NCBI GenBank assembly: GCA_963726575.1
Contig: CAVSCR010000003.1
Span: 226,518-290,517 of the forward strand
DNA from: an uncultured Actinomycetota bacterium
Lineage (GTDB): Bacteria; Actinomycetota; Actinomycetes; JAHEKZ01
Reading direction: 5' to 3'
Length of the DNA stretch: 64,000 bases
The notes beneath the pieces were generated by a model. That model made no database searches, was not told the origin of the DNA, and saw nothing but the letters and a program-made list of their open reading frames with translations. The translations under genes were made by a program, and so were the position numbers. Below, piece by piece: positions 10,772 through 63,168 of the stretch (its first letter is position 1; each line of letters opens with the position of its first letter).

Positions 10772-11491
10772 ATGGACAACTCTAGCGGAGTGGGCGTTCT
10801 GGACAAGGCCGCCCTCGTCCTCGGCGCGCTCGAGGCCGGTCCCCAGAGCCTGGCGGGCCTCGTCCAGGCGACCGGCCTCGCCCGGCCCACCGCCCACCGA
10901 CTGGCCGTGGCGCTGGAGTTCCACCGCCTGGTCGCTCGTGACGTCCAGGGTCGCTTCGTGCTCGGTCCTCGGGTGGGCGAGCTGGCCGCAGCCGCCGGCG
11001 AAGACCGACTGCTCGCTGCCGCAGCCGCCGTTCTCGCCCAGCTGCGGGATCTGACCGGCGAGAGCACCCAGTTGTACCGGCGACAAGGCGATCAACGGGT
11101 GTGTGTGGCCGCGGCCGAACGCCTCTCCGGGCTGCGGGACACGGTGCCCATCGGCAGCGTGCTCACCATGCAAGCCGGCTCGGCGGCGCAGATCCTGTTG
11201 GCCTGGGAAGAGGCTGACCGCCTGCACCGCGGTCTTCGAGGTGCCGCCTTCTCTGCGGCGACCTTGGGCGGTGTCCGACGCCGGGGCTGGGCGCAAAGCG
11301 TTGGCGAGCGCGAACCCGGCGTGGCATCGGTGTCCGCACCGGTGCGCGGTCCGAGTGGACGCGTGGTGGCTGCAGTGTCCATTTCTGGTCCCATCGAGCG
11401 GCTCGGCCGCCAACCGGGGCGACAACACGCCGCCGCGGTCGTCGCCGCCTCGAACGCCCTCACCGAGGCGTTGAGGCGCGCGAAGAACTGA
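10772..11491 (+). CDS. IclR family transcriptional regulator (LtbR-like, divergent from leuCD)
   Basis: N-terminal wHTH (VGVLDKAALVLGALEAGPQSLAGLVQATGLARPTAHRLAVAL) plus an IclR effector domain. Start at M47 of the track ORF. Same arrangement as Mtb Rv2989. Confidence 0.85.
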   Translation: MDNSSGVGVLDKAALVLGALEAGPQSLAGLVQATGLARPTAHRLAVALEFHRLVARDVQGRFVLGPRVGELAAAAGEDRLLAAAAAVLAQLRDLTGESTQLYRRQGDQRVCVAAAERLSGLRDTVPIGSVLTMQAGSAAQILLAWEEADRLHRGLRGAAFSAATLGGVRRRGWAQSVGEREPGVASVSAPVRGPSGRVVAAVSISGPIERLGRQPGRQHAAAVVAASNALTEALRRAKN

Positions 11492-11504
11492 GACTCGCCT
11501 GGGT

Positions 11505-12130
11505 CTAGTGACCGCGCGCCATCCACTCCGGCAGGTGCGGCGCCTCGGCAGCCAGCGTCGTGGAGTCGCCGTGGCCGGTGTGCACGACGGTTGCGGGCGG
11601 CAACATATCGAACAGGCGCCCCACCGATTCGATGATGGTCGGGAAGTCCGAGAACGACCTCCCGGTGGCACCCGGCCCCCCGGCGAACAAGGTGTCGCCA
11701 CTGAAGACGACCCCTAGATCGGCGCTGTGGAAGCAACAGGACCCTGGGGAGTGGCCAGGGGTGTGAAGCACGCGCAGCTCGGCCCCGGCGGCCGGTACGA
11801 CGTCGCCATCCGTGACCAACACGTCGGGGTCCGTAGACCCGTGGGTGAGGCGCCACAGCGGCAGGTCGTCCGGATGCAGCCAGATCTGAGCCCCTGTTCG
11901 GTGGGCCAGCTCAGGCGCGACGCGGACATGGTCGTCGTGGGCGTGGGTGCAGACGATGGCTGTGAGCTGGCGGCCGGCGACTCCAGCAATGATCGCGTCG
12001 ACATCGTGCGGCGCGTCGATCACGATGCACTCGTCGTCGTCTCCGACGAGCCACACGTTGTTGTCGACCTCCCACGTGCCGCCGTCCAACGAGAACGTCC
12101 CGGACGTGATGAGCCGCTCGACCCGGGCGC
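11505..12130 (-). CDS. MBL-fold metallo-hydrolase (Rv2260-like), co-operonic with mscR; no canonical start codon, CTG overlapping the mscR stop (CTGA)
   Basis: HAHDDHV and HTPGHSPGS metal-binding motifs. The N-terminus RLITSGTFSLDGG aligns with MLITGFPAG of Rv2260. There is no in-frame ATG/GTG/TTG between the conserved N-terminus and 13100. The first in-frame TTG is about 30 codons downstream. Confidence 0.7.
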
Positions 12131-13287: not shown

Positions 13288-13360
13288 TAGCCCCGACCGG
13301 ATTCGAACCGGCGCTACCGCCTTGAGAGGGCGGCGTGCTAGGCCGCTACACAACGGGGCC
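13288..13360 (-). tRNA. tRNA-Glu (anticodon CTC)
   Basis: The reverse complement GGCCCCGTTGTGTAGCGGCCTAGCACGCCGCCCTCTCAAGGCGGTAGCGCCGGTTCGAATCCGGTCGGGGCTA folds as a cloverleaf. Anticodon loop CTCTCAA, T-loop TTCGAAT. Confidence 0.85.
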
Positions 13361-13402
13361 GTACACAGGTCGACCGCTCCATCTGGGGAGCGTTCGGATC
13401 CG

Positions 13403-13474
13403 CTGGGGTACCAGGACTCGAACCTAGACTAACGGAGCCAGAATCCGTCGGGCTGCCAATTACCCCATACCCCA
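13403..13474 (-). tRNA. tRNA-Gln (anticodon CTG)
   Basis: The reverse complement TGGGGTATGGGGTAATTGGCAGCCCGACGGATTCTGGCTCCGTTAGTCTAGGTTCGAGTCCTGGTACCCCAG has a 7-bp acceptor stem, anticodon loop TTCTGGC and T-loop TTCGAGT. Confidence 0.85.
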
Positions 13475-20641: not shown

Positions 20642-21883
20642 TCAGCGACCCGCACCGGAGGGGGTCGGTGAGCCGTCAGTCAGCGGCGTCGCAACGTCGT
20701 GGGCTGCGGTCCTGAAGGTCCAGGCGATCGAGGCGAGGAGGGTGAGGAGGAGCAAGATGTCGATGCTGCCGAGGAGGAACTGCGGCGGTGAGTTCCGGTA
20801 GGTGTGCACCACGAGCCACACCACCCGCCCCAGCAGCACGGCGCCGAGCGTGACCGCCAGCCACCGGATCTGCCAGTACCTCCGGTCGGTGCCCAGGCGT
20901 ACCGAGGCGACCAGCAGTGGCAGGATGAAGATCCAGTGGTGGATCCAGCTGACCGGTGAGATCGCAAGCATCCCAGCCATGGCGACCGCTTCGGCCAACC
21001 ATGGCCGGCGCCTCACGACGTTGTGGGCGGTCCACAGCACCATGGCGGCCACCAGCAGCGCGCAGCAGGACCAGAGCGCCTGGTCGTGGACCGGGTAGTG
21101 CTGCCAGCGCACGATCAGGCCGTTGATCGACTGGTTGCTGACATACCCCAACCCGAAGCGCGACAGATCGGAGACGTCCCCGAACCAGAAGTCGGCCGAC
21201 GCTGCCGGCATTGCCACGAACGCTGCCGCGGTGATCCCGAGGAACGTGGCGGCGGCCCAACGCGCGTCGCGGATCCGACGAACGGCCAGGAAGTACGCGA
21301 TCAGGAACAACGGCGTCAGCTTCAGCGCCGCAGCCACGCCGACCATCACCCCGCGAGGCAGGCGTGGCCAAGCCCCGCACAGATCCGCGAGCACGAGCAG
21401 GACGATCAACACATTGATCTGGCCGGTCCCAAGGCCAACACGCAGCGGGTCGGACACGGCGACGAGCACGAAGACCATCAAGCGCCAGGTCGGGTCGGCG
21501 GCGATTGCCGGGGAGGCATACCGGTCAAGCGTCAGCCGCACGACGAACCACAGTCCGACCAGGGAGGTGAGGGTCCATCCAAGTTGCGCCAACCCCTGCG
21601 GCACAGGGGAGAGCGGGAAGAACAGCAACGCCGAGACCGGCGGGTACGTGAAGGGGTACCCCGAGCCGGTCACCAGCCCGTTGTAGAGGTGATGACCACT
21701 CAGCGCCGCCGCGCCGCCGGCGCGGTAAACGGCAAGGTCCAGCTCATAGCCCTGCCACGCGTGCACCAGGTAGCCGGCACAGACCGCCGCAGCGCCCAGG
21801 ACCAGCAAGCCCCGGGCCGGCCGGCCCCAACCCCCGACCCACTCGGCCCGCACCGCACGCACCCTACGCCGGAGGCCGCGCAT
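20642..21883 (-). CDS. polytopic membrane protein, DUF2029/GT87-like glycosyltransferase (polyprenyl-phosphate-sugar dependent, PimE-like)
   Basis: 413 aa with about 10 predicted TM segments and no soluble domain. Sits between leuB and serA, which are adjacent in Mtb. Confidence 0.6.
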
Positions 21884-21913: not shown

Positions 21914-23497
21914 CTACAGGTCGATCGTTCGCCCGTCGTGGGCGCTGATCCCGGCAACGATCAGCTCGGTGACCTCCGCCGGAATCACGGAGTCCACGGT
22001 CAGGGCGATCAGGGCGTGTCCGCCGAGGGACGTGCGGCTCACCTGCATCCCGGCGATGTTGATGTCGTGCTCGCCGAGGATCCGACCGACGGTGCCGACC
22101 ACGCCGGGCTTGTCGTGGTAGCGAAAGAACGCGAGGTGGCTGGCCGGAGCGATGTCCACGTCGAACCCATCGATCTCCACGAGCTTCTCGACGTCCTTCG
22201 GCCCCGAAAGGGTCCCCGACACCGACACCTGTCGGCCGTCGGCCAACGCACCGCGAACGATGAGCAGGTTCCGGTGATCGGGACTGTCCCCGTCGACGAC
22301 GAGGTTGATCACCACACCACGCTCAGCGGCAAGCAGCGGCGCGTTCACGTAGGACACATGCTCGTCGACGATCCCGTCGAAGACGCCCTTCAGAGCGGCC
22401 AGCTCGAGCACCTTGACATCCGCAGCAGCGAGCTCGCCTCGCGCCTCCACGGTCAGCCCCTCAGGGGCGCCCCCGGCCAGCCCGGTGAAGACGGCGCCGA
22501 GCTTCTCGGCCAGTGCAATGAAGGGTCGGACGTCCTCCTCGATCACGCCACCCTCGACGTTGACCGCGTCGGGAACGAGCTCGCCCGAAAGCGCCAGCCG
22601 CACCGATCGGGCGACTGCGATGCCCGCCTTCTCCTGTGCCTCATCGGTGCTCGCTCCCAGGTGCGGCGTCGCCACGACGCGCTCCAGTGCGAACAGGGGC
22701 GAATCCGTGCAGGGCTCCTTGGCATACACGTCGACGCCGGCTCCCCACACGCGACCCGTCGAGATCGCCTCAGCCAGGGCTTGCTCGTCGACGATGCCAC
22801 CGCGGGCGGCATTCACGATGATCACCGTCGGCTTGACGAGCGACAGCTGTTCCTCGCCGATCAAGCCGACCGTCTCCGGCGTCTTGGGCAGGTGCACCGT
22901 GATGAAGTCGCTCTGTCGCAGCAACGTGTCCAGTGGGACGAGCGTCACCCCCATCTGGGCAGCGCGGGCCGGCTGCACATACGGGTCGTACGCGATCACA
23001 TTGGTACCGAACGCGAGTAGACGCTGTGCGGCCAGCTGTCCGATCCGGCCGAGGCCGACCACGCCGACCGTCTTCCCGTACACCTCGATGCCGGTGTACC
23101 GGGATCGCGCCCACTCTCCGCGCCGCAGGGCAGCGTCCGCTTGAGGGATGTTGCGTGCAGCGGCCAGCAACAAGGCCACAGCCAGCTCCGCCGCGCTGAC
23201 GATGTTCGAGGTCGGCGCATTCACGACCATCACGCCAGCCTGGGTGGCAGCTGCGACGTCGACGTTGTCCAGCCCCACGCCCGCACGGGCGACCACCCGC
23301 AGCTTCGACGCAGCAGCCAGCACGTCGGCGTCGACCCGAGTGGCGCTGCGCACGAGGATCGCGTCGACGTCGCGCACGCAGGCCAGCAGCTCGGCCCGAT
23401 CGGCACCGTTGCAGTGCCGCACCTCGAAGTCCGGCCCCAGGGCCTCGAGGGTGGCCGGCGACAGCTCCTCGGCGATGAGGACCACGGGTCGGGTCAC
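21914..23497 (-). CDS. serA: D-3-phosphoglycerate dehydrogenase (long form with ASB and ACT domains)
   Basis: 527 aa with the 2-hydroxyacid DH catalytic and NAD domains (GVVGLGRIGQLAAQRL) plus a C-terminal ACT domain. Confidence 0.93.
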   Translation of the reverse strand: MTRPVVLIAEELSPATLEALGPDFEVRHCNGADRAELLACVRDVDAILVRSATRVDADVLAAASKLRVVARAGVGLDNVDVAAATQAGVMVVNAPTSNIVSAAELAVALLLAAARNIPQADAALRRGEWARSRYTGIEVYGKTVGVVGLGRIGQLAAQRLLAFGTNVIAYDPYVQPARAAQMGVTLVPLDTLLRQSDFITVHLPKTPETVGLIGEEQLSLVKPTVIIVNAARGGIVDEQALAEAISTGRVWGAGVDVYAKEPCTDSPLFALERVVATPHLGASTDEAQEKAGIAVARSVRLALSGELVPDAVNVEGGVIEEDVRPFIALAEKLGAVFTGLAGGAPEGLTVEARGELAAADVKVLELAALKGVFDGIVDEHVSYVNAPLLAAERGVVINLVVDGDSPDHRNLLIVRGALADGRQVSVSGTLSGPKDVEKLVEIDGFDVDIAPASHLAFFRYHDKPGVVGTVGRILGEHDINIAGMQVSRTSLGGHALIALTVDSVIPAEVTELIVAGISAHDGRTIDL

Positions 23498-23730
23498 GGC
23501 GCGTCAACGTCCTTCGCAGTAGTGGAGCCGGCGATTCTACTGAGCAGGTGAGGACGTTCCTCGGCCGGCGGGTGCGTCGAGGAGATCTGCTTGGACACGG
23601 CCAGGCATCACGTCGTCGCCGTGCGTGATCACGGTCGACTGCGCGGGTGGGCTGGCCTGACCCGATGCCGAAGCACCCCCGGCCGTGGGGCACCCTTGGT
23701 CGCCAGACAAGGTCGGACAAGGGGTGGACG

Positions 23731-26700
23731 TTGCGTAGGAGTCGACGCGCGAGGGTGTCGGTCGCCCGTCGGCGCGCCCTCGCGGGACTCGCCGCCCTGG
23801 TCGTCGCCGCCTTCGTCGGTGGCCTGCTGCCGCTGACACCGTGGGCTCCCTCGTGGGTCGCGCCCGTGGCCGCGGCCGCCGGCCCGGCCATTCCAGGCAC
23901 CGTGTCCGATCGCCCCGACGACCACACCCTCAGCGCGGCCAACGGCGAGGTGCGCGCGCTGGCACAGGTCGGCAACCGCATCTATCTCGGCGGCACATTC
24001 ACCAAGGTCGGGCCCGCGCGGTTGGGCGCCGCTGGCGTTCTCCAGACGCGTCACCGCGCCTTCAGCGGGCACTTCCCTGATGTCTCCGGCGTGGTCTATG
24101 CGGCGGCGGCCGACGGTCACGGCGGTTGGTACCTCGGGGGAAGCTTCACCACGGTGGGCGGCGCGTCTCGAGCCAACCTCGCTCACGTCCTGGCCAACGG
24201 GCGGGTGGCGCGCTGGAGTCCGCACCCCAACGGCGCCGTCAGAGCGCTCACCCTGACCCGCAGCGGCGTCGTCGTCGGCGGCGACTTCACCACCATGTCG
24301 GGGCGGCCGGCCGGGCACCTGGTCAGCCTCGCGTTGCGCACCGGCCACATCCGGTGGGACGCCGCCCTGGACGACTCCGCCCTGAGTCTCGCCCTGAGCT
24401 CGGACCAGAGGACCGTCTACGTCGGAGGCGCGTTCACCCACGCACGCGTGACTGTGCGCCGCGGGCTCCTGGCGCTGAGCGCGCGATCGGGCCGGCTGGA
24501 CCGGCGGTTCCACCCGAGTGTGGACGGGCCCGTCCGGGCGCTTGCGGTCGACGGCAAGACCGTCTGGCTGGGCGGTGATTTCACCTCGGTGGCCGGTCGG
24601 CCGCATCGCCATCTCGCGGCCGTGACGACCTCGGGGACGCCGCGCCGGAGCCCGAGCACGGACGCAGCGGTGCTGGCGCTGGTCATCGACCGAGGTCACC
24701 ACCGGGTGTTCCTGGCAGGCAAGTTCGGCCGCGTGGCCGGCCTGAGGCGACCGCGCCTGGCAGCCGTGTCGACGACGACTGGCAAGCTGGGCCGGATCCA
24801 CCTGACCCACCCCAGCGGTGAAGTCCGCGCGCTGAGCATCAGTCACGGGAGCCTCATCCTGGCCGGGGACTTCCAGGACAGCCCGGTCAAGACGGCTCCC
24901 GGCGTGCTGGCGCAGATCCCGCTGAACTCCGCGGCAGTCCGGCATGCCGTCCCGTTCGAGGCAGCACCCGCCTCCATGAGTCGGCCCAGCCGGGACGGGG
25001 GCGGCGTCTACGCGCTGGCCACCGGGCTGTCGGGACGCGTTCTGGTGGGCGGCGACTTCTCCGACTACGGGCTGGTCACCCGACGGCACCTGGCGGCGTT
25101 CAACGCCGACACCGGGGCACTCGACCGTACGTTCCGTCCGCGCGTCGACGGTCCGATCTACACGCTGAAGTCCACACCCAGCGGCCAGGCGCTGTTCCTC
25201 GGCGGCGCGTTCCACACCGTCGACAGGTTGGCCCGCAAGAACCTGGCCCGCATCGGCTCGGTTCGTGGCGAACTCGACAAGGTCTTCCGGGCCGACACCA
25301 ACGCCTTCGTCAAGGACATGGCCGTGTCGAGCAACGGACGCCTGTACGTGGCAGGCCCGTTCGTCACGCTCGGCGGAGCGCCGGCTCGGCATCTCGCAGC
25401 GCTATCGGCCACCACCGGACACCTCCTGGGCGGCTTCACCATGCCGGTCACGAGGCCCACCAACGAAGTCAGCGACGGAGTCCGGGCCATCGCCTTGTCC
25501 CCGGATGAGCAGACCCTGGCAGTCGTCGGCAACTTCCGCCGCGTCGGTGGCATCGATCGACCGCTGGTGGCGCTGATCGATGTGGGGGTCACCCCGGCCA
25601 AGGTGCGCGCGTGGCGAACCACGTTGTATGACACGCCCTGCGCAGCTGGCCGGGTTGGTCGGATGCGCGACGTCGCCTTCTCACCAAATGGATCGCAGCT
25701 GTTCGTCGTGAGCGCCGGAACATACAACCCGCCTGCTTGTGACTCGGTCAATGCCTTCCCAGTCGTTCCCAACCATGCCGATGTGACACCACAGTGGACC
25801 GCGCGGATAGGCGACAGCATCGAGACCGTCATCGCAGCCCCGGGCACGGTGTACCTGGGCGGCCACTTCCGCGTCATCGACCGCACCACATGGACCGACC
25901 CTCGGTACCACCTCGCCGCGCTGGACTCCGCCACGGGTCGACCCCTCTCCTGGCAGCCGAACGCCAACGGGTTCCGGGGCGTGCGCGAGCTCGAGATGGG
26001 TCCCTCGGGGCTGTTGGTCGGTAGCGACGCGAAGGCGTTCGCCCAACTGCCCCACGGACGAGTCGCCGTGTTCGCGCCGGCCCCCCCGGGGCTGTCCGTG
26101 CGGGTGACCGGCAGCCGGGCCTGGGTACCACCGGCCGGCGCCTCCGTCACCTTCGACGTCACCTTGAGCAACACCTCTGGCGCCGCACTTGCCGTGAACG
26201 GCCTCACCGACAGCCACCTCGGCAACCTCGACGGAGTGGGGACCTGCGCCGTGCCGGCGACGATCATGGCCGGGTCGTCGTACGAGTGCCACTACGCCGC
26301 GATCGTCAGTGGCAAGGCGGGCAGCGGTGTCAAGCACACGGTCACCGCAAGCACCGGCGCGGCGACCGCCAGCGACACGGTCAAGACCACGATGGTCGCC
26401 CACGTCCCCACGGTCCGGCTCTCGGCGAGGACTGCCCCGATCCGGGTGCCGCGTGCCGGTGCGCGGATCCGGATCGGAGTGACGCTCACCAACGTCGACC
26501 CCGTCAGCTCGGTCGTCATCAAGACGCTCGCCTCGAACCGCTGGGGCGACCTCACCTCCACCTGCGGGTTCCCCAAGACCGTCGCGCCGAACGCCAGCGT
26601 CTGGTGCCGCCTCGACCCACGCGTCGGCGGCGCGCCCGGGACCTCTGTCCCCTTGCGGTTCAGCGCCACGGGGACGGTCGGCACCCACTCCTTCAGCGCC

Positions 26701-26733
26701 GCAGGTCAGGTGCGCGTGCGGGTGGCGGGGTAG
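23731..26733 (+). CDS. large secreted repeat protein: about 11 beta-propeller-type repeats (delta-60 / DUF5122-like, G-G-x-F-T-x-V-G-G-x-x-R-x-x-L-A) plus two C-terminal DUF11/Ig-like modules
   Basis: Track ORF 23647..26733. An RR-rich signal peptide (RRSRRARVSVARRRALAGLAALVVAAFVGG) follows the TTG at 23731 or GTG at 23755. Repeats recur every 45-50 aa (VYLGGTFTKVGPARLGAAGV, WYLGGSFTTVGGASRANLAHV, VWLGGDFTSVAGRPHRHLAAV, ...). The tail has two Cys-pair modules (VTFDVTLSNTSGAALAVNGLTD...CAVP...YEC and IGVTLTNVDPVSSVVIKTLAS...CGFP...WC). Confidence 0.75.
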   Translation: MRRSRRARVSVARRRALAGLAALVVAAFVGGLLPLTPWAPSWVAPVAAAAGPAIPGTVSDRPDDHTLSAANGEVRALAQVGNRIYLGGTFTKVGPARLGAAGVLQTRHRAFSGHFPDVSGVVYAAAADGHGGWYLGGSFTTVGGASRANLAHVLANGRVARWSPHPNGAVRALTLTRSGVVVGGDFTTMSGRPAGHLVSLALRTGHIRWDAALDDSALSLALSSDQRTVYVGGAFTHARVTVRRGLLALSARSGRLDRRFHPSVDGPVRALAVDGKTVWLGGDFTSVAGRPHRHLAAVTTSGTPRRSPSTDAAVLALVIDRGHHRVFLAGKFGRVAGLRRPRLAAVSTTTGKLGRIHLTHPSGEVRALSISHGSLILAGDFQDSPVKTAPGVLAQIPLNSAAVRHAVPFEAAPASMSRPSRDGGGVYALATGLSGRVLVGGDFSDYGLVTRRHLAAFNADTGALDRTFRPRVDGPIYTLKSTPSGQALFLGGAFHTVDRLARKNLARIGSVRGELDKVFRADTNAFVKDMAVSSNGRLYVAGPFVTLGGAPARHLAALSATTGHLLGGFTMPVTRPTNEVSDGVRAIALSPDEQTLAVVGNFRRVGGIDRPLVALIDVGVTPAKVRAWRTTLYDTPCAAGRVGRMRDVAFSPNGSQLFVVSAGTYNPPACDSVNAFPVVPNHADVTPQWTARIGDSIETVIAAPGTVYLGGHFRVIDRTTWTDPRYHLAALDSATGRPLSWQPNANGFRGVRELEMGPSGLLVGSDAKAFAQLPHGRVAVFAPAPPGLSVRVTGSRAWVPPAGASVTFDVTLSNTSGAALAVNGLTDSHLGNLDGVGTCAVPATIMAGSSYECHYAAIVSGKAGSGVKHTVTASTGAATASDTVKTTMVAHVPTVRLSARTAPIRVPRAGARIRIGVTLTNVDPVSSVVIKTLASNRWGDLTSTCGFPKTVAPNASVWCRLDPRVGGAPGTSVPLRFSATGTVGTHSFSAAGQVRVRVAG

Positions 26734-26748
26734 ACGCACCGCTCAGGG

Positions 26749-30127
<3,379 letters not shown>

Positions 30128-32771: not shown

Positions 32772-33057
32772 CAGCCACCGACGGCACCACCAGCAGCTCG
32801 GCCCCGTCTGCTACGGGGGTCTGCTCGCCGCCGGTGCCTCGGATGTCGGCGCCGTCCACGTAGAGGTTCACGAAGCGCCGGACCTGTCCGCTTTCGTCCC
32901 TCAGCCGACGCTCGACGCCCGGTCGCTGCCGCGCCAACGCGTCGAGTACGTCGCCCACGGTTGCCGGTCGCGCGGACTCCTCCAGCGCCACCTCGAACCG
33001 ACCGCGGCCGGTGCCGCCGGAGAGGGCCGCCGGCACGTCGACCGTGACCAACGTCAC
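32764..33057 (-). CDS. MoaD/ThiS-family ubiquitin-like small protein ending in Gly-Gly
   Basis: C-terminal 97 aa of track ORF 32764..33735 (VTLVTVDVPAAL...[37 protein letters not shown]). The GTG start at 33057 overlaps the TGA of the upstream gene (GTGA). The stop overlaps the trmB start. Confidence 0.6.
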   Translation of the reverse strand: MTLVTVDVPAALSGGTGRGRFEVALEESARPATVGDVLDALARQRPGVERRLRDESGQVRRFVNLYVDGADIRGTGGEQTPVADGAELLVVPSVAGG

Positions 33058-34184
33058 GAGACCGCGACCCCCGGTGCGTCCGGGAGGACGGTGGCCCTGA
33101 CGCACAAGACGTCGGGGAAGTGCTCGGCCACCCGACCCCACGTGGAACCGGCGTCGGTGCTGGCCCAGACCTCCCCCGAGCGGGTGCCGAAGTAGACGCC
33201 GAGCCGATCGGGGTCCTCCAGGCCGCCGACCCCGTCCACCGCGAGCGCGTCGCGCAGGACGACGCTGTAGAAGCCCTCGTCCGGGAGCCCGGTGCCCGAG
33301 GCACTCCAGGACTGGCCGGCGTCGTCGGTGCGGTAGACGCGGGCGCGGTACTCCGGCGGCATGCGATGGGCATCGGCCTGGAGCGGGAACAAGAAGGCCG
33401 TGCCTGCCCGGTAGGGATGTGCCACGAGACCGAACCCGAAGTCGGCCGGCAGCCCCGCGGTGGCCAGAGCCCAGGTGCTGCCGTCGTCGTGACTCGTGAA
33501 CACGCCGCCGTGGTTCTGCAGGTACAACCGTGTCGGGTCGGCACTGTCCCGCGTCACCTTGTGCACGCACTGTCCGTACTCCGGGTAGCGGTCCGGCTGG
33601 AAGCGAGCCTCGATGCCCGCGTTCGACGGCGCCCAGGATTCGCCACCGTCGGAAGACCGGTAGACCCCGCCGGTGGAGATGCCGACCAACACCTCGTCGG
33701 GATCCGTCGGATGGGGAAGCACTGTGTGCAGGCACAGGCCGCCGAACCCCGGCTGCCAGGTGGCGCGGTGCGGATGGTCCCAGAGGCCGCGCACCAGCTC
33801 GAAGCTCTCACCACCGTCATGGGACCGGAACAGCGCGGCGGGCTCGACGCCAGCCCACACCTCGCCGGGCCGATCCAGTGGACCTGGCTGCAGCTGCCAG
33901 ACCTGCGCGACGGCCGCCTCCGCATCGGAGGGGAACCGCAGTGCGGCGCGCTCCTCCTCGACCCATGTGACGCCGAGGTCGTCGGAGTGCATGACCACCG
34001 GCCCCCAGTGCTCATGCCGTCCGCCCATCAGAACGCGAAGCGGAGCCTGGCGGGCGTCGAGGCCGATCGCCGCCACCCGGGCCATGACGGCATGCGGACC
34101 ACTCCACGACCAGGTCCTTCGATCCTCGCTGGTGGCGAGAAACAGCCCCTTGTCGGTACCGACCGCGAGAAGCACGACAGCCAC
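33054..34184 (-). CDS. BNR/Asp-box repeat beta-propeller protein (sialidase / Ycf48-like fold)
   Basis: Six S-x-D-x-G-x-T/S-W boxes (SDDLGVTW, SHDGGESF, SSDGGESWA, SHDDGSTWA, TDDAGQSWS, STDAGSTWG). Confidence 0.75.
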   Translation of the reverse strand: MAVVLLAVGTDKGLFLATSEDRRTWSWSGPHAVMARVAAIGLDARQAPLRVLMGGRHEHWGPVVMHSDDLGVTWVEEERAALRFPSDAEAAVAQVWQLQPGPLDRPGEVWAGVEPAALFRSHDGGESFELVRGLWDHPHRATWQPGFGGLCLHTVLPHPTDPDEVLVGISTGGVYRSSDGGESWAPSNAGIEARFQPDRYPEYGQCVHKVTRDSADPTRLYLQNHGGVFTSHDDGSTWALATAGLPADFGFGLVAHPYRAGTAFLFPLQADAHRMPPEYRARVYRTDDAGQSWSASGTGLPDEGFYSVVLRDALAVDGVGGLEDPDRLGVYFGTRSGEVWASTDAGSTWGRVAEHFPDVLCVRATVLPDAPGVAVS

Positions 34185-55466: not shown

Positions 55467-57602
55467 ATGTCGGTCAAGCTTCGGGTGCCCGCCCTCGTCG
55501 TCGGGGGCGCCTTGCTGGCTGCCTCTGGAACCCTCGCCTGGTTCAACGGCCACTTCGCCGACCAACGCCACGCCGAGCAGGACCAGGTGCTGACCACGGC
55601 TGCCGAACAGGGGGCGGTGCTCACCTCGCAGCGCTTCGAGCGCGCGGTCTCGGCCGACCTTCAACTGGCCGCGACGCCAGCATTTCGCCGGTTCTACCTC
55701 GCGCCGGGAACTCGGATGCAAAAGATCGACCGCAACATCCAGCAGATCCGGGATGCGAACGCCGAGATGGCGTACGTCGAGAACCTCTTCCCTGGAGCCG
55801 TAAGCGAGGCCTGCTTCATCGACATCACGAACGCACACGAGAACGGTCGGGTCGTGCAAGGCAAGATCGCACCGGCGAAAGACCTGTCACCGGATGAGTC
55901 CGGGAACCCCTTCTACAAGCCGACGCAGGCCGAACCACGCGGCACCGTCTTCCAGTCCAAGCCGTACCTGTCCATGGACACCAACGAGTGGGTCATCGGC
56001 AACGCGACCAACATCTACGTCCACGGCCACAAGCAGGCGCTGGTGCACTTCGAGATCAGCGTGGACAGCATCCGCACCGAAGCGCTGCTCCCGGCCTCGG
56101 ACTCCACGTTGCGCGTCGTCGACGCCGACACAGGCGCAGTCGTGATCGACACTCGCTACCAGCAGCCGAACGGCGGGACGCTCGGACGCCCCAGCGACAA
56201 CACCTTCACGTCACTGCCCGCCACCTGGCATGGCAGCGGCGTGTCAGACGTCGACGGTCAGCGCGTTGCCTACACGCCGATGAAGCCTTCGACCACCCTG
56301 CCGGCGGACAACGTCAACCACTGGTACATCGTGGCCAGTGCACCCGTCGTCGCCTCCGGCGCCGGTGCCGCGATCACCCCGCTGGTTCTGCTCCTGTTCG
56401 CACTCGGACTGCCGCTGTTCGTCTACGGTCTGGTCTCCTGGATCGTCGCGCGACGTCATCGCTCGCACTTCCAGGCGCGCACTGCAGCCGAACGCGACCT
56501 GTTCGACTCCCGGCTGGAGGATCTCACCGTGGCGCTGGACCGCGCGGCGGCCGGTGACCTCTCCGTGCAGCTGGCGGTTGACCTCGGTGACGAGCGGATG
56601 ACGTCGTTGGCCCGGTCCTTCGACCACACGCTGTCGCGTCTTCGGCTGCTCGTCGAACAGGCCCAGGAGAACGGTTTGCGTCTCGCCCATGCCGCCACGG
56701 AGCTGCAGGCGAACGCGACGCAGCAGGCGATGTCGGCACAGGAGCAGGCCGCGACCGTCACCCAGACCACCTCGACCATCCAAGAACTTGCTGCAACGGC
56801 CGCTCAGATCGCCGACTCGTCGGGCTCGGTCGCGGCGGCGGCGCAGCAGACCCTGCAGCTGACCAACGACGGCCTGGCCGCGGTGGCTGACTCCGCCGAA
56901 GCCATGCAACGGATCGGCGACCGCGTCGAGTTCATCGCCTCCAGCTCACTCGGCCTGGGCGAGAAGGTGTCCGAGATCGGACGGATCCTGGAGTTCATCG
57001 ACGACCTGTCGGGACAGACCAACCTGCTGGCGCTCAACGCGGCGATCGAAGCCGCCCGCGCCGGTGAGCACGGGCGTGGGTTTGCCGTGGTCGCCGGCGA
57101 AGTGCGTCACCTGGCCGAACGAGCCCAGCAGTCAACCGCACAGATCCAGGCTCTGGTCAACGAGATCCAGGCCCATGCGCAGGCGACGGTCGGGGCGACC
57201 GAGGAGGGATCGCGGGAAGCGGCCCGCGGCACCGGCGTTGCCCAGCGTGCCACCGACGCACTCGGGCGGATCGCAGCGATGGTGGACGAGACCACCGACG
57301 CCGCCGCTGAGATCTCCGTGGCCACGAAGCAGCAGCAGTCGGCGTCGACCCAGATCGTCACCGCCATGTCCGACGTCGCGGAGGTGTCGCGCCAGTTCGC
57401 CACCGGCGCCACCGACGCGGCAAAGGCGTCGGAGGATCTGGCGGGGCTGGCGGCGCAGGTGCACACCTCGATCGCCGAGTTCGCCACCGACGCCCACCGG
57501 TCCGCCACTAGCTCGACGGGACCTGTCGTCGCGCCCGCCTGGCAGCCGTCCGCCGATGACGAGCTCCCCACGGACGACCTGGAGCCAGCTCCTTCACGGT
57601 GA
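55467..57602 (+). CDS. methyl-accepting chemotaxis protein with periplasmic Cache-like sensor domain
   Basis: TM1, about 270 aa periplasmic domain, TM2, HAMP, and an MCP signalling domain with the highly conserved [34 protein letters not shown]. Confidence 0.85.
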
Positions 57603-59549
57603 CGCAGTCGCCGTCGCCGTCGACACGCCGATCCGGTCCAGCGACGGCTCGGCGAAGGCTTGATCGAGAGAGAAGGTCGTGACGTGACGTCCAGCAAGAC
57701 GTACTACGTCTTGGACATCCAAGGGGATCACAGCGACGAGCTGTGAGACGAGCACCTGATCCAGGCGAGCCCAGCACATCGGCGCCTGGGGTCCGACGGC
57801 GGCGGCGCACCTGGCGATGTCGTCGTTGACGCTGGGTAGCTTCTGGGGTGGATAGCCGAGCTTCACCAGCTCTCGTGACGGCGCCCCCAACAGGTCGCCG
57901 GTCCCGATGGAATCCGGGTAACGGAAAGGCACGAACATCGCGCCGGCGTCCGGGTAGTCGGTGAACCAGCCGTACACGCAGAGGGGCACGTGCTGCGTGA
58001 TGTCGAAGCAGGACGCGTCCGCCGAGACCTTTGCCGTGATGCCGAGACGAGCCAGCGCGTTCACCAGGGGCCGCGCCTGCGCCCGACTCTGGCTCATGGG
58101 TTCCCCGCCACCCGTGCCCGGCCACATCAAAGCCAGAGGCCCGCAAGCCGGGCCAGCACAGAGGCCACGCGAGTCGCCGTAGCGGGAAAGGCGCATCTGC
58201 GTGCGGGCCGCCGCCAGGTTTCCACTCGATGCTTGCCCGCCCAACCCGCGCCAGGCACCGAGCAGCGAGTTGTCCATGGGGTCAGGAACGAAATGTGTCG
58301 TTGGGGTCTTCTGCGACACCGGCGTGCCACCGGCTCCTCGCGCCGCGGCCGCACGGTCCAGCAGCAGCGCCAGCGCACGACGGACATGAACGTCGTCGAA
58401 CGGGGGCATCGCCAGGTTGAACGTGAGGAACTCGTTGCCGTTCGTGGGGACCCGCGTGACGCTGTTCTGGAGGTCGAGTCGCGCAAACTGATTCACGACG
58501 TGGGGCGGTGGGTTCTCTCCCATGACCGTGTCGAGGTCGCCCGAGAGCAGGGCCGGGTACGGATTCTGGTCGGCGTACGAGACGACGATCCGGTCCGGTA
58601 GCGCCAACCGGTTCGAATCGGTGCTGGGCGCCCACGAGGGGTTGCGGACCAGCGTCACCTGTCCGGTTTGGTCGAACCACCAGGCCGGCTTCAGGCCGCT
58701 GGCAGGGCTCTGTCCGGATGCGGGGGCGCTGTAGTCGATCGTGTCGGCGCCTTCGATCATGTAGGGCCCGGTTGCGGACAGGAACGGCCCGTAGCCCAGC
58801 GATGCGGGTTTCGCGCCCGGCGAGCCGCCGGCTCTGGCGTTGACGTAGTCGTTGATGGGTCCGCCGTCGTGGCCGGTTGCCACCCCCAGCAGCGCATCGG
58901 GACGCGTCGGGCTGGGTGGGATCGGCGACGCCAGCGGCTCGGCGAGCAGGAACAGGATCGATCGGTCGGGCCTGGTCTCCCTGATCTGCACCGTGTAGGG
59001 GTCCGGGGTCGTGACGCCGGAGATCGAGTCGGTCCCGCCCGACAGGAACTCCTGGTAGCCCTCGATCAACGGGAGGTAGGAGGCGCCGGGTCCTCCGTGG
59101 TTTCCAGCGGAGTCCTCCGTTCCCCGCGCGGTGCGGTCCAGCCCCCGGACAAAGTCAGGCGCCGTCACCTCGACGTTCTGCAGCGGCGGCGCGTAATGGA
59201 TCCCGTGCTTGAGGTGGAAGGTCCAGGTGCGGCCGTCGGCGGACACAGTCGGCGGCCCGCTCGCCAGATCCGGCACCGGCTGTGTGCCGGTGAAGCCAGG
59301 GGTGCCGGGGAAGGTCATGAGGGTGCGCGTCAGGCAACATCTGAGCAGCTCCAGCTCCGGAGCCGTGAACGCCATCTGGGGGTCCAAGCCAAAGTACATC
59401 GGTGTCGCCGTCGCGACCCGCAACGTGCCGCCGGCACCGGAAGGCAGCGAGTCCGACGGCGACGAAGACGACGGCCCGGCACACCCGACGAGCAACAACG
59501 CAAGGACAGTCGCCGCGCCGGTGGCCGTTCGCAGAGCGTGTCCCGTCAT
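57594..59549 (-). CDS. orphan ABC-type solute-binding lipoprotein, family 5 (peptide/nickel/opine class); paralog 1
   Basis: Lipobox LLLVGC, then [18 protein letters not shown], typical of the SBP_bac_5 N-terminus; 651 aa. About 70% identical over long stretches to the gene at 61225..63168. No permease or ATPase genes are adjacent. Confidence 0.85.
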
Positions 59550-59556
59550 GGCGACG

Positions 59557-61224
59557 TCAAGGCCCGCTGGTCCCGACGGCCACCCACACGGTGCCGTCGC
59601 TGGTTCGGCTCAAAGCGACGGGCAGGCCACCAACTGGCAGCGTGGCCATGACGGACCCGTCGCTCGGATCGAGCGCCACGACGGTCTGGGACACAGTGCA
59701 GGCGATCCAGATCCGGTCGGCGAGCGCGGCCACGGCACCTGGGCCGTCGCACGCGCTGCCGAGGTCGAGATTCAACACGGGGGCACCCATCGCTGACAGA
59801 TGGTTCACGGCATCTGTCGAGTCGCTGACCACCCAGACGGAACCGTCGGGGGCCACACTCAGCGCGGTGGGCACGTTGGTGCCGAGCCGAAACGGGTGGG
59901 GGTGGCCACGGCCGTCCGCGGACACCTTGTACACCTCGGGCAGGCGCCCGGCGGCCACCCACACGGTGCCGTCGGCGGCCATGTCGAGGGCGACGGGGCC
60001 GGAGCCGTCGGGCAACTTGACGTGGGTAGTGGCGCGGGTGGTGGTGTCGTAGCGCACCAGCACCGACTCCGGCGGGTTGGCCACCCACACGGTGTCGGCG
60101 TTGGCGGCGACCGGATAGCTGTCGCTGGGCACCTCGAACGGGGCTTGAGCCAAGCCGCTCTGGGCCGACGTCACTACCCGAAGCCGGTCACCTGGCGCTG
60201 AGCCGAATCCGAACGACACCCACAACGTGCCGCCCGAGAGAGCCAGACCGGTCGGCCCGCTCGCAGTGCCGAGCGTGTGCGCCACCTCGCCGGTGTCGGT
60301 GTCGAGCTGGCTGAGGTTGTTGTTGCTGACGTCGCCCAACCACACGGTCGATCCCTCTGCGACCAGGACACTCGGGACCACCCCGGAGGACAGTGGATCT
60401 GACGTCGCAAAGACCTGTGTACCGGGGTCGATCCTGGCCACGGAGTTCGCTGGCGGCTCTGCTTGCGCCGAGCGGGTCGTGACCACCACAACCGCTGCCC
60501 CGGCGACGAGAACCACGCCGGCTGCCGCCGCCGCGATCGGCCATCGGCGACGACCGCCGGACTCCACCTCTACGGCCTCGCGTCGGGCTCGCGCCTCGTC
60601 GTCCCCCAACGGAAGCGGTCGCGGCAAGCCATCGACGGCCGTGACGGCGAAGACCCGCCAGGTTCCTTCGACGCCCTTGAGCTGATGCTGTCCCCGGTCG
60701 TCCAGCTCGAAGCCGCCGCCGCGGGTGAGCTCCGCCGCCGTGCTCGAGATCAGAACCTCGCCGGCATCTGCCAACGACATGATCCGCGAGCCGACGACGA
60801 CCGTGATCCCGCCGAGCTTCTTGCCGATCCGCTCGCACTCGCCGAAGTGCACGCCGGCTCGCAGCCCCAGTCCGAGCTCGCGCACGGCGTCGGCAGCGGC
60901 GCAGGCGCACGAGATGGCAGAGGCGGGCTCCCGGAAGCTGGCGAAGAAGCCGTCGCCGGCGGTGTCGAGCTCGCGCCCACCGAACCGCTTCAGCTCACGA
61001 CGCACGGCGGCATGGTGCTGGTTGACCAGGGCCTTCCAGCGCCGGTCCCCCAGCTCTTCGGCGATCGTCGTGGAGGAGACCAGGTCCGTGAACAGCACGG
61101 CACTGAGCACACGCTCCGACGGGGCGGCCACCGCGCCAGTCTGATCACCCCGGCCCGCCGCGTAAAGCGACATTGCACAACTGATGGGCAGCGCAGTCTG
61201 GTCGTCGCTAGGGCAGCTGGCCAT
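59557..61224 (-). CDS. class III adenylate/guanylate cyclase with unusual topology: N-terminal cytoplasmic cyclase domain, single TM, C-terminal extracellular Vgb/NHL-like beta-propeller
   Basis: Cyclase homology domain motifs VLFTDLVSST, DTAGDGFFASF and AGVHFGE. TM WPIAAAAAGVVLVAGAAVVVV. Six to seven blades such as SGPTGLALSGGTLWVSF and SGPVALDMAADGTVWVAAG. The ATG at 61224 abuts the TAG of the upstream SBP gene; the alternative start is M18 (61173). Confidence 0.8.
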   Translation of the reverse strand: MASCPSDDQTALPISCAMSLYAAGRGDQTGAVAAPSERVLSAVLFTDLVSSTTIAEELGDRRWKALVNQHHAAVRRELKRFGGRELDTAGDGFFASFREPASAISCACAAADAVRELGLGLRAGVHFGECERIGKKLGGITVVVGSRIMSLADAGEVLISSTAAELTRGGGFELDDRGQHQLKGVEGTWRVFAVTAVDGLPRPLPLGDDEARARREAVEVESGGRRRWPIAAAAAGVVLVAGAAVVVVTTRSAQAEPPANSVARIDPGTQVFATSDPLSSGVVPSVLVAEGSTVWLGDVSNNNLSQLDTDTGEVAHTLGTASGPTGLALSGGTLWVSFGFGSAPGDRLRVVTSAQSGLAQAPFEVPSDSYPVAANADTVWVANPPESVLVRYDTTTRATTHVKLPDGSGPVALDMAADGTVWVAAGRLPEVYKVSADGRGHPHPFRLGTNVPTALSVAPDGSVWVVSDSTDAVNHLSAMGAPVLNLDLGSACDGPGAVAALADRIWIACTVSQTVVALDPSDGSVMATLPVGGLPVALSRTSDGTVWVAVGTSGP

Positions 61225-63168
61225 CTAGGGAGACGACGTGCTCACCGCCAGGCGGTCCAGGGAGGGCTCGGTGAACGCCTGGTCCATCGAGAACGCCGTA
61301 ACATTGGGGCCGGCCAGCCGGATGACGTCTAGCGTGTCGAGGGGGATGACGGCGACATACTGCGACACGACGACCTGGTCGAGGCGGGCCCAACACAGCG
61401 GGGCCTGCGGACCCACCGCAGCCTGACATCGTGCGAAGGAGGCGTTGATGCTGGGCAACCGTTGCCTGCGGTAACCCCGCTTCGCGAGCTCGTCGGGCGG
61501 AGTGCCCATCATGCCACCAAACAAGGCCGATTCCGGGTAGTGGAAGTACACCAGCATCGCGTCCGGGGCTGGGTAGTCGGGACCCCAGCCGGTGACACAG
61601 AGCTGGATCCGCTGAGTGGGGCGGGTGCAATCGGCCTTCTTGGTCACCCTCCCGGTGATGCCCAACTGCGCAAGGGTCGCGACCAGCGGGCGCGCTTGGG
61701 CTCGACGCAGCGACAACGGTTCATGTCCTAATTCGCCGCTGGGCCACATGATCGGGAACGGACCACAGGCCGGCCCGGAGCATCGCCCCTGTGGATCGCC
61801 GTAGCGCGACATCCGCATCTGCGCCCTTGCCAGGGCAAGCCGACCGGTGGCGGCGGCGCCGCCCAGCGCATCCCAGCTGGTGAGGAAGGAGTTCTCCAGG
61901 GGATCGGGCACGAAGTGTGTGGCAGGGCTGGTCTGCGAAGGAGGCCACTCGATCATGCCCCGCGCCACTGCCGGCCGATTCAGCAAGATGGCGAGCGCGC
62001 GTCGCACGTGGATGTCGTCGAAGGGTGGCAGGGCCAAGTTGAACAGGACGAACCGGGTGGCGTTCAGCGAGACTCGAAACGCCCGGCTCTGCAGCCCCAA
62101 CCGGTCGTAGCGGCTGATGACCTGAGGCGGTGGGTTGTCGCCCATCACGGTGTCGAGAGCGCCGGAAGCCAGCGCAGCGTAAGAAGCCAGGGCAGCGGAA
62201 GGCCTCGAACCCGAGAAGGACAAGACGATTCGGTCCGGCAGCGCGGGTCGGTTCGGATCCGTGCTGGCCCTCCACGACGGGTTGCGCACCAGTGTGACGC
62301 CGCCGACTTGGTTATTCGACCAGGCGAGCCGCAATCCGCTCGGTGGGACCTGCTGCGACGGTGCCGCCGAGTAGTCGATCTGGTCGGCCCCCTCGAACAT
62401 GTAGGGGCCGGTCGCAGCGAGGTACGGCCCGTATCCGATCGAGGTCGGCGGTGCCAGGTCGACCCCGTGTCCCGTCGCCACCCCCAGCGGGGCAGCCGGG
62501 TCGGTCGGGCTGGGGGGGATCGGGGCCGAGAAGGGCTCGGCGAACAAGGACCTGATCGACTGGTCGGGACGAACCTCGCGGACCTGCAAGGTGTATCGGT
62601 CTGGGGTGGTGACCCCGGAGATCGAGTCGGTCGCACCTGCCAGGAACTCCTGGTAGCCCTCGATCCTGGTCAGGTACAGCGCGCCCATTGAAGGCGGATC
62701 TCCGCGGGCGGTGGTGGTCCCCTTTGCGGAACGCATGAGCGCACGAACGAAGTCGGGCGCGGTCACTTCGACGTTCTGCAGCGGTGGCGCGTAGTGGATC
62801 CCGTGGCGCAGATGAAAGGTCCAGGTGCGACCGTCCGTTGACACCATGGGAGGGGCGTCGGCCAGGTCGGGCACCGGTTGGGTACCGGCGAAACCCGACA
62901 GTCCCGGGAATGCCATCAGCGTGCGGACCAGACAGCAGCGCAACACCTCCAGCTCGATCGGGTCCCAGGTCGTCTGCGGGTCGAAGCCGTTGAACATGGG
63001 CGCCAACATTGCGGCGCGCACGGTTCCGCCTGACGCCACCTGTCCGACCGACGCGGACGAGGCTGACGGCCGGCTGCCCGAATGGCTCGAGCATCCGCCC
63101 AGCACCACGACAGACACGACCAGCGCCACGACCGCAGGTCGCACAGGTACGCGGCGGCGGCGAATCAT
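61225..63168 (-). CDS. orphan ABC-type solute-binding lipoprotein, family 5; paralog 2
   Basis: Lipobox VVLGGC and GGTVRAAMLAPMFNGFDP. Shares long near-identical blocks with paralog 1 (TWTFHL[KR][26 protein letters not shown][TV]RTLM). 647 aa. Confidence 0.85.
   Translation of the reverse strand: MIRRRRVPVRPAVVALVVSVVVLGGCSSHSGSRPSASSASVGQVASGGTVRAAMLAPMFNGFDPQTTWDPIELEVLRCCLVRTLMAFPGLSGFAGTQPVPDLADAPPMVSTDGRTWTFHLRHGIHYAPPLQNVEVTAPDFVRALMRSAKGTTTARGDPPSMGALYLTRIEGYQEFLAGATDSISGVTTPDRYTLQVREVRPDQSIRSLFAEPFSAPIPPSPTDPAAPLGVATGHGVDLAPPTSIGYGPYLAATGPYMFEGADQIDYSAAPSQQVPPSGLRLAWSNNQVGGVTLVRNPSWRASTDPNRPALPDRIVLSFSGSRPSAALASYAALASGALDTVMGDNPPPQVISRYDRLGLQSRAFRVSLNATRFVLFNLALPPFDDIHVRRALAILLNRPAVARGMIEWPPSQTSPATHFVPDPLENSFLTSWDALGGAAATGRLALARAQMRMSRYGDPQGRCSGPACGPFPIMWPSGELGHEPLSLRRAQARPLVATLAQLGITGRVTKKADCTRPTQRIQLCVTGWGPDYPAPDAMLVYFHYPESALFGGMMGTPPDELAKRGYRRQRLPSINASFARCQAAVGPQAPLCWARLDQVVVSQYVAVIPLDTLDVIRLAGPNVTAFSMDQAFTEPSLDRLAVSTSSP

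Follow-up and report, generated by a model that had tools for sequence, protein, structure and literature searches.

A DUF5122-type double-propeller protein encoded between serA and ilvC in an uncultured Actinomycetota bacterium, a candidate exported binding or scaffold protein

The gene at positions 23731-26733 (+ strand) of the window, the whole 64,000-nucleotide stretch of DNA analysed here, encodes a protein of 1000 residues. On balance this protein is probably exported and acts in the cell envelope in binding or as a scaffold, without enzymatic activity. Structure prediction, which the sequence-only reading of this DNA had proposed as a check, gave a confident AlphaFold (AF2) model (pLDDT 88.5, pTM 0.84). 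In the model 14 blades are arranged as two rigid seven-bladed propellers, followed by two Ig-like beta-sandwiches.

The gene and its place between serA and ilvC

An ORF scan gave a single unbroken ORF at 23647..26733 on the + strand, with the stop codon ending at 26733. A split of the ORF by sequence error had been named as a risk; the ORF is uninterrupted, and full-length orthologues exist. Three start codons had been considered in the sequence-only reading (TTG 23731, GTG 23755 and GTG 23647), and the uncertainty was settled in favour of TTG 23731, which is the best candidate and would give the product of 1000 aa. At the homologous position the orthologues start with GTG, ATG and GTG, and a GAGGGG/AAGGGG Shine-Dalgarno sequence 6-10 nt before the start is kept in five loci (the window, L001, L002, L004 and L087). 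In the window, the Shine-Dalgarno-like AAGGGG at 23719-23724 and the preferred start codon at 23731-23733 together span 23719..23733 (+). The upstream GTG 23647 was rejected, as the extension is not conserved as protein and contains in-frame stops in L001 and L002. The NCBI annotation of the gene (P0001, 992 aa) starts at GTG 23755, which was judged less likely than TTG 23731 from the orthologue starts and the Shine-Dalgarno sequence.

The gene is real, intact and under purifying selection, with a dN/dS of about 0.27 (0.26-0.28, versus 0.05-0.09 for serA and ilvC). Long shadow ORFs arise in high-GC DNA, and several opposite-strand ORFs of more than 350 aa overlap the propeller gene, as might be cited in favour of an ORF that is decaying or spurious, a by-product of high G+C content. 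Such an origin is next to impossible and is already refuted by the full-length orthologues, the confident AF2 fold, the dN/dS and the GC3 signature. This signature is confined to the frame of the propeller gene, and the antisense ORFs either fail the filter or are third-position shadows.

The gene lies between serA (21914-23497, - strand) and ilvC (26749-27786, - strand), the position given for it in the sequence-only reading, and is the sole + strand gene within a long - strand run. Its stop codon is 15 bp from ilvC at a convergent end, where no unusual RNA structure was found (z = -0.17). With serA it shares a divergent intergenic region of 233 bp (23498..23730, not assigned to a strand), the presumed promoter site, in which the window has conserved blocks in common with L001 and L002. 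No Rfam family was found in this 5' intergenic region, and neither a sigma-70 consensus promoter nor an intrinsic terminator was found around the gene. The same region contains, at 23624, a perfect palindrome of 10 bp, CGTGATCACG, which was rejected as an operator because it is not conserved in L001, L002, L004, L005 and L087, and because copies with one mismatch are common in the window. The source organism is known from metagenome assemblies alone.

Lineage-specific acquisition of the gene, as suggested earlier, proved to be an overstatement. Codon usage is native, and orthologues occupy the same serA-X-ilvC slot in the same orientation at six related loci, with protein identities of 43-88% and including 43%-identical forms of 1530 aa. 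Native codon usage, together with same-slot orthologues beside a SerA that is 71% identical, indicates that the gene is old in the clade. It is highly improbable that an adhesin gene was recently acquired by horizontal transfer and inserted into the conserved amino-acid biosynthesis cluster, although the lone + strand orientation fits an insertion and the propeller gene is evolving far more rapidly than the genes beside it (88% identity versus 96% for SerA at L001; 43% versus 71% at L004). In other actinobacteria, as far as is known, the space from serA to ilvC is either empty or filled by other genes, which also counts for a transfer. However, both GC and GC3 (0.87 in the ORF frame) are indistinguishable from those of the neighbouring genes, no mobile-element genes or repeats adjoin the propeller gene, and position and orientation are identical at all six loci. 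The "recent" part of a horizontal-transfer reading is already largely refuted.

Some orthologues, such as P0007 and P0010 in MAGs of uncultured Actinomycetota, are long forms of about 1530 aa. These share with the window protein the signal peptide, the 7 + 7 propellers and both Ig-like modules. They are 37-44% identical over 90-96% of the query, and several of them are found in the serA-X-ilvC slot. In addition they carry about 530 aa at the C-terminus, made up of a domain of about 200 aa without a Pfam match and a six-bladed NHL/TEN_NHL propeller; NHL repeats (PF01436/PF25021) are absent from the window protein. The long forms are acidic (pI 4.7-7.0, about 5), whereas the window protein has a pI of 11.2 and a net charge of +49. 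Such extreme positive charge is unique to the short-form clade (pI about 11, net charge about +40 to +49), and the soluble neighbours have a pI of about 5. The short forms make up one monophyletic clade, which lies nested within the long forms. From these comparisons the window form appears to be derived, C-terminally shortened and charge-reversed, and truncation and charge reversal would be the lineage-specific part of its history.

Two propellers and two Ig-like modules

An HMM seeded on eight "GG.F" segments found four further blades unaided (E 4.7e-6 to 0.006). One iteration raised the total to 12 repeats, all at E <= 3e-11; they are about 47 aa long and begin at intervals of 46-61 residues. 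The earlier estimate of about 11 repeats at a spacing of 45-50 aa was essentially right but slightly low in count, since there are 12 repeats in the sequence and 14 blades in the AF2 model; two of the 14 are degenerate in sequence and 12 are clear. The earlier consensus agrees with the one obtained here, hydrophobic-Y/W-L-G-G-x-F-T-x-V-G-G-x-x-R-x-x-L-A. Propeller 1 (residues 68-400; 23932..24930, +) consists of seven DUF5122-type blades. Propeller 2 (residues 424-785; 25000..26085, +) has seven blades by HMM and AF2, five of them DUF5122-type, together with the divergent blades 12 and 14.

The blades had been described as delta-60/DUF5122-like, and the second name held while the first did not. 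The whole-protein score for PF17164 (DUF5122) was 36.1 bits (E 7.6e-9), above the gathering threshold of 27, and the orthologue P0007 reached 62.8 bits in five stretches. For TIGR02608 (delta-60) the score was 10.8 bits (E 0.34) against a cutoff of 76.5, with no stretch passing. PF12768 (Rax2 C-terminal propeller) also scored above threshold, with 40.9 bits versus 28.8 in two stretches. Rax2 is a yeast membrane protein, but the match spans only model positions 35-132 of 254 and therefore reflects repeat-level similarity, not orthology to yeast Rax2. A PDB sequence search with the window protein gave no match at E <= 1. With the propeller-2 profile no PDB match was significant; the top one was hydrazine synthase beta (E 0.059), through a "SPDG..LYV" blade motif only. 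The full orthologue profile matched only NHL domains, which the window protein lacks.

Two C-terminal modules of about 100 aa with one Cys pair each had been predicted, and both were found. Module 1 (residues 786-890; 26086..26400, +), a DUF7507/CLIPPER_2-like beta-sandwich in the AF2 model (pLDDT about 91), carries the pair C839/C853. Module 2 (residues 891-1000; 26401..26733, +), likewise delimited by AF2, carries C945/C959 and is followed by the stop codon, with no anchor signal. The modules are about 105-110 aa long, and all four cysteines (1000-aa numbering) are invariant or nearly so in the orthologues. Of the earlier DUF11/Ig-like description, the Ig-like part was upheld by the AF2 sandwiches and by Foldseek, which matched the modules to tandem FnIII/Ig domains and module 1 to the tandem sandwiches of RbmA and transglutaminase. 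The DUF11/TIGR01451 part found no match in the window protein: no Pfam family, including PF01345 (DUF11), was found at E <= 10 when each module was scanned alone, and TIGR01451 gave no match at E <= 10. PF01345 was touched by only 2 of 16 orthologues (E about 0.0065). PF24346 (DUF7507/CLIPPER_2) was matched by 12 of the 16 aligned orthologues (best E 4.7e-8), and the window protein itself scored 14.4 bits (E 0.04), below the threshold of 27 bits. By transitivity via the orthologues, the modules are likely to be homologous to DUF7507/CLIPPER_2. A PDB search with the C-terminal profile gave no match.

CLIPPER (DUF11) and CLIPPER_2 (DUF7507) are Ig-like domains with an isopeptide bond that build the stalks of fibrillar adhesins (bioRxiv 10.1101/2025.04.25.650565; PDB 9IFR). 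The triad of first-strand Lys, catalytic Asp and Asn/Asp partner was sought in both modules, at positions set by spacing analogy to 9IFR and not by structural superposition. At the candidate isopeptide position of module 1, which is Lys in most long-form orthologues (VRK), the window protein carries Val (VRV), and D45 and D100 are kept. No isopeptide bond is therefore expected in module 1, and in module 2 both the Lys and the Asp are lacking (LTS).

Export and putative function

The N-terminus (residues 1-50; 23731..23880, +) has the features of an export signal or signal-anchor, namely an Arg-rich n-region, a hydrophobic core of 20 residues, a Pro-rich spacer and a candidate AAA/G cleavage site, in agreement with the RR-rich signal peptide reported earlier. 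The most hydrophobic 19-mer starts at residue 17, and residues 1-55 are modelled with a pLDDT below 50. A motif scan also agreed with the earlier statement that no LPXTG or C-terminal anchor is evident: there is no L[PA]xT[GAS] motif anywhere in the protein, and the C-terminus (...GQVRVRVAG) is not hydrophobic and has no hydrophobic tail.

The N-terminus could also be that of a Tat-exported, membrane-anchored (type II), receptor-like protein, whose uncleaved N-terminal helix would tether the propellers while they sense an external cue. The RRR-A-L-A motif gives a near-threshold match to TIGR01409 (Tat; 13.5 bits, E 0.069, versus a cutoff of 16.7), and an unusually long spacer, of about 15 residues, separates the hydrophobic core from the first AxA-like site. 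Yet the twin-arginine motif is not kept in P0004 or in the long-form orthologues, the latter having short, classical AxA Sec signal peptides, and the conservation of the Cys pairs points to a protein that folds once exported. The cytoplasmic part would be only about 14 residues long and without a signalling domain. Reg_prop repeats and Y_Y_Y fused to a histidine kinase form the periplasmic sensor of hybrid two-component systems, an architectural analogy only; Pfam gave no match to PF07494 (Reg_prop) or Y_Y_Y in the window protein, nor a cytoplasmic signalling domain. The Tat-exported, receptor-like reading is very unlikely.

The exported binding or scaffold protein would leave by the Sec route, with folding and oxidation outside the membrane. 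It could be retained at the surface by an uncleaved N-terminal anchor or by electrostatic attraction to anionic wall polymers, the latter as judged from net charge alone. The Ig-like modules would act as spacers, and the conserved polar face of propeller 2 would bind a putative ligand, for which a glycan or another polyanionic polymer is the most plausible candidate. A putative adhesin-like role is plausible. The ancestor would have been an acidic protein of about 1530 aa with an NHL propeller, of which the window form would be a shortened, cationic derivative.

Propeller 2 is the best-conserved part of the protein, and the best Pfam stretches for Rax2 and DUF5122 are located there. Its top-conserved 15-mers contain GDFSDYG, GRVGxMRDV, PACDSVNAF and GGHFR, and its invariant polar residues are numerous (D, S, Y, K, R, W, H and E). 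Blade 12 carries a Cys pair, C637/C670 (25639..25740, +), that probably forms a disulfide, as suggested by its conservation: among 30 orthologues C637 is invariant and C670 at least 90% conserved, and both are invariant in alignment A4. A catalytic or metal site could explain the many invariant polar residues (D, S, D, Y, K, R, D, E, H) equally well. All-propeller enzymes include the GH74 double propellers, lactonases and lyases, and the window protein might be a secreted enzyme in which the polar cluster of propeller 2 (GDFSDYG, MRD, PACDSxN, GDxIE, GHFR, HGR) is the active or metal site, with a polymer or small molecule outside the cell as its target. The many invariant charged and aromatic residues of propeller 2, where those of propeller 1 are structural, are consistent with such an enzyme, as is the additional NHL/SGL-like propeller of the long forms, named "sugar lactone lactonase YvrE" by one source. 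This NHL part is missing from the window protein, however, and the propellers that its fold matched are generic scaffolding ones. Neither sequence nor profile searches of Pfam, NCBIfam and the PDB matched any enzyme family, and the earlier remark that no enzymatic domain is recognisable thus stood. An enzyme is unlikely, though deserving of some weight.

A bolder and distinctly less likely proposal is that the short-form clade is a neofunctionalised version of a conserved actinobacterial surface protein. Having lost the NHL propeller, it would have had its charge reversed over the whole protein (about -20 before, about +40 now) and would have become a polycationic, wall-bound or polyanion-binding protein, with teichoic-acid-like polymers, eDNA or humic/clay surfaces as partners. 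Co-regulation with amino-acid biosynthesis may be part of this proposal, because the gene has long been fixed divergently to serA.

Significance and comparison with known systems

For a specialist nothing here is surprising. The family to which the modules belong is a very large one in bacterial surface proteins, which makes this an ordinary find with a few lineage-specific twists. The gain is in annotation: the preferred start codon is fixed, the architecture is defined (7 + 7 blades and two CLIPPER_2-like sandwiches predicted to lack an isopeptide bond), and the gene is shown to have long occupied the serA-ilvC gap in an uncultured soil Actinomycetota clade and to be no recent insertion. DUF5122 double propellers are among the commonest unexplained modules of bacterial surface proteins. 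We know of no DUF5122/Rax2 propeller protein with an established function, and a literature search for DUF5122 gave incidental mention only. The compact orthologous group, the confident model, the conserved polar face of propeller 2 and the natural acidic and basic variants make this protein a reasonable entry point to the ligand of the module.

The repeat type is shared with the DUF5122 (PF17164)/Rax2 (PF12768) proteins, which number in the thousands and include many large surface proteins. At the 50% level 26,621 clusters match the window protein, and among them giant proteins with many repeats contain the same propeller and Ig modules. More distant relatives have these modules fused to T9SS sorting, FlgD-Ig, fn3 or chitobiase-C-type domains, as is typical of surface proteins; most DUF5122/Rax2 relatives add such sorting or anchor domains, whereas the window protein is without them. 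The secreted seven-bladed propeller YncE of E. coli (PDB 3VGZ) differs in having a single propeller and no Ig modules, and has no sequence similarity to the window protein. The CLIPPER/CLIPPER_2 domains share the Ig-like beta-sandwich fold class, and the spacing of CLIPPER K715, D748 and N806 is close to that of K10, D45 and D100 in module 1 of the orthologues. In contrast to CLIPPER stalks, the window protein has only two copies, not a long stalk, and each module has a Cys pair instead of the isopeptide residues. At 8-12% identity, and with other blade families and numbers, the top Foldseek matches (the archaeal S-layer protein 1L0Q, integrin alpha ectodomains and SorCS2 6FG9) offer an architectural analogy, not membership: they are extracellular propeller + Ig/PKD architectures with a ligand-binding propeller head on beta-sandwich "legs", an overall design like that of the window protein.

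Gene structure and the serA-ilvC slot

The gene for the secreted double-propeller protein lies in a single, uninterrupted reading frame (23647..26733, + strand) between serA (21914-23497, - strand) and ilvC (26749-27786, - strand), and its stop codon is now only 15 bp from ilvC. Comparative evidence favours TTG 23731, giving a protein of 1000 aa, as the probable start. The starts of the close short-form orthologues P0002, P0003 and P0004 are homologous to this codon (GTG, ATG and GTG, respectively), a Shine-Dalgarno-like GAGGGG/AAGGGG motif is found 6-10 nt 5' of the start in the window and in the related loci L001, L002, L004 and L087, and the frame opened by the upstream GTG 23647 has no protein-level conservation and contains stop codons in both L001 and L002. 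The database copy of the protein, P0001 (992 aa, 100% identical), is annotated with GTG 23755 as its start. Residue numbers refer to the 1000-aa form throughout.

Compared to the L001 and L002 orthologues, dN/dS was 0.26-0.28, against 0.05-0.09 for serA and ilvC; the gene is under purifying selection, looser than that on its two neighbours. A word-indexed search scored 1020 homologues at E <= 1e-3. An exhaustive search returned 26,621 representative clusters at E <= 1e-3, of which 5,907 also passed E <= 1e-30. Because of the dN/dS values and these large homologue counts the gene is regarded as real, and a spurious ORF is unlikely. Large antisense ORFs over the gene failed the codon-position test or were third-position shadows. 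A perfect 10 bp palindrome, CGTGATCACG (23624-23633), in the divergent intergenic region next to serA is probably due to chance; it is not kept in the related loci, and copies with one mismatch are common across the window.

The sequence-only reading had suggested a lineage-specific acquisition. This was overstated, as the same order and orientation recur in L001 (orthologue 88% identical), L002 (63%) and L003, and also in L004, L005 and L087, whose orthologues run to about 1530 aa and share only 42-44% identity. Since SerA itself is only about 71% identical in the latter three, the gene is an old resident of this slot within a clade. Recent horizontal acquisition is unlikely; G+C is flat throughout the region, and the GC3 of the gene (0.87) is at the level of the neighbouring genes. 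Farther orthologues (P0025, P0019 and those of L006-L011) are located outside the slot. All named sources of orthologues are uncultured Actinomycetota MAGs.

leuB and a glycosyltransferase gene lie beyond serA, and ilvN and ilvB beyond ilvC. The glycosyltransferase, a GT87-family membrane protein (PF09594, 1.1e-45; 20642-21883, - strand), occupies the space between leuB and serA in the window as well as in L001, L002 and L003, and is absent there in L004 and L005. In L087 (2913-6065) two 509-aa PQQ-like propeller genes take its place. Both gaps beside serA thus appear variable, as slots in which genes for envelope or exported proteins are found.

Elsewhere in the window, a 376-aa BNR/Asp-box, Sortilin-Vps10-like propeller protein (33054-34184, - strand) adjoins ThiS-like and methyltransferase genes and is conserved in this position in L001. 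Two SBP_bac_5 solute-binding-protein genes (57594-59549 and 61225-63168, - strand) flank the gene (59557-61224, - strand) for a 555-aa protein in which an adenylate/guanylate cyclase catalytic domain is fused to a Vgb_lyase-like propeller; the group (57594-63168) is possibly a ligand-sensing cyclase module. A 711-aa methyl-accepting chemotaxis protein (55467-57602, + strand; MCPsignal, 7e-40), encoded within a housekeeping region otherwise actinobacterial-looking, suggests a motile or chemotactic lineage. Across the whole window, two adjacent tRNA genes (13288-13474, - strand) were the only gathering-level Rfam matches.

Export signal and domain architecture

The N-terminus consists of MRRSRRARVSVARRR, ALAGLAALVVAAFVGGLLPL, a Pro-rich spacer and AAA|G, a candidate cleavage site. 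The Tat model scored 13.5 bits, just below the cutoff of 16.7. The twin arginine is not conserved among orthologues, and a Tat-anchored receptor is unlikely. Long-form orthologues carry short classical Sec peptides with an AxA end, and we infer that the window protein is exported by Sec. Three conserved Cys pairs (637/670, 839/853 and 945/959) are consistent with oxidative folding outside the cell. Neither an LPXTG-like motif nor a hydrophobic C-terminal tail was found in the window protein.

An HMM built from eight 'GG.F' segments independently picked up four more blades, giving 12 repeats of about 47 aa after one iteration, with the consensus given by the sequence-only reading. AlphaFold2, supplied with a 30-sequence orthologue alignment, gave a model (mean pLDDT 88.5, pTM 0.84) with a disordered signal or anchor (residues 1-55), two seven-bladed propellers (residues 68-400 and 424-785) and two beta-sandwich modules (residues 786-890 and 891-1000). 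Blades 12 and 14 are divergent in sequence. Foldseek matches included the propeller plus Ig/PKD ectodomains in SorCS2, integrin alpha and the archaeal S-layer protein 1L0Q. The protein passed the Pfam cutoffs for DUF5122 (36.1 bits, cutoff 27) and the Rax2 propeller (40.9 bits, cutoff 28.8); the suggested delta-60 membership failed (TIGR02608, 10.8 bits, cutoff 76.5).

The C-terminal 218 residues, modelled separately, reached a pLDDT of 91 and resembled tandem FnIII/Ig-like pairs, namely RbmA and transglutaminase C-terminal barrels. The modules had been read as DUF11- or Ig-like; scanned alone they matched neither Pfam nor TIGR01451. Among 16 aligned orthologues, 12 matched DUF7507 (best 4.7e-8) and two DUF11; the window protein reached DUF7507 with an E of only 0.04. 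DUF7507, renamed CLIPPER_2, is a relative of DUF11/CLIPPER, a CnaA-like Ig domain from the stalks of fibrillar adhesins, with a Lys-Asn isopeptide bond whose formation an Asp catalyses (bioRxiv 10.1101/2025.04.25.650565). In most long forms module 1 has a Lys (VRK), an invariant Asp (LTD) and another invariant Asp about 90 residues on, a CLIPPER-like spacing. However, this Lys is Val or Leu in the window protein and its close relatives, and module 2 has neither Lys nor Asp, so both modules are predicted to be CLIPPER_2-like folds without the isopeptide bond. An invariant Cys pair is found in each module in its place. The window protein is a genuine propeller protein of the DUF5122/Rax2 type and carries CLIPPER_2-like modules.

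Truncation and charge reversal

The protein is an orthologue within a small actinobacterial family, in which a longer, acidic form is the usual one. Unlike the window protein, long forms have an extra region of about 200 aa (P0007 residues ~1005-1215; L004 ~11010-11650), which has no Pfam match and follows the second Ig-like module, and then a six-bladed NHL/TEN_NHL propeller. In a neighbour-joining tree (no bootstrap) the four short forms were one clade nested among the long forms, which implies that a single C-terminal truncation would have produced them. The L003 orthologue, P0005, is not usable as evidence of a shorter form because its contig (ENA contig_73987) appears to have many indel errors; nearly every gene, with serA, ilvC, ilvB, ilvD and P0005 among them, is broken into fragments, and P0005 ends in what reads as frameshifted nonsense.

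The window protein has a pI of 11.2 and a net charge of +49, a strong basicity that the sequence-only reading did not mention and that is a trait of the short-form clade (P0002, P0003 and P0004, pI 10.1-11.0). The positive charge is spread over both propellers and the Ig modules, except in propeller 2 of P0003, which is nearly neutral (net -2). Since all long forms have a pI of 4.7-7.0 and the soluble neighbours within the window about 5, the reversal is specific to this protein. In L085 (12953-20632), glycosyltransferase (Alg14/Glyco_tran_28_C-like, GT2) and sulfotransferase genes are clustered behind the non-syntenic long form P0025 and share its strand; in that genome the arrangement may point to a connection with a sulfated surface glycan.

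Proposed role

Propeller 2 is the best-conserved part of the protein, with numerous invariant polar and aromatic residues and the top motifs GDFSDYG, GRVGxMRDV, PACDSVNAF and GGHFR; in propeller 1 nearly all invariant positions are Gly, Phe or Pro. The functional site is thus probably in propeller 2. The main alternative, an enzyme with this polar cluster as its site, fits the conservation, but no enzyme family or solved relative was found by sequence or profile (Pfam, NCBIfam, PDB), and we consider it rather improbable. An exported binding or scaffold protein is the best-supported reading. The double propeller would offer a conserved face for binding and the two Ig-like domains would serve as spacers; either an uncleaved N-terminal helix or the positive charge of the protein may keep it on the envelope. 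Such a protein is no departure from the known kinds of bacterial surface protein, a kind itself functionally uncharacterised; its sole unusual traits are the lineage-specific truncation and the charge reversal.
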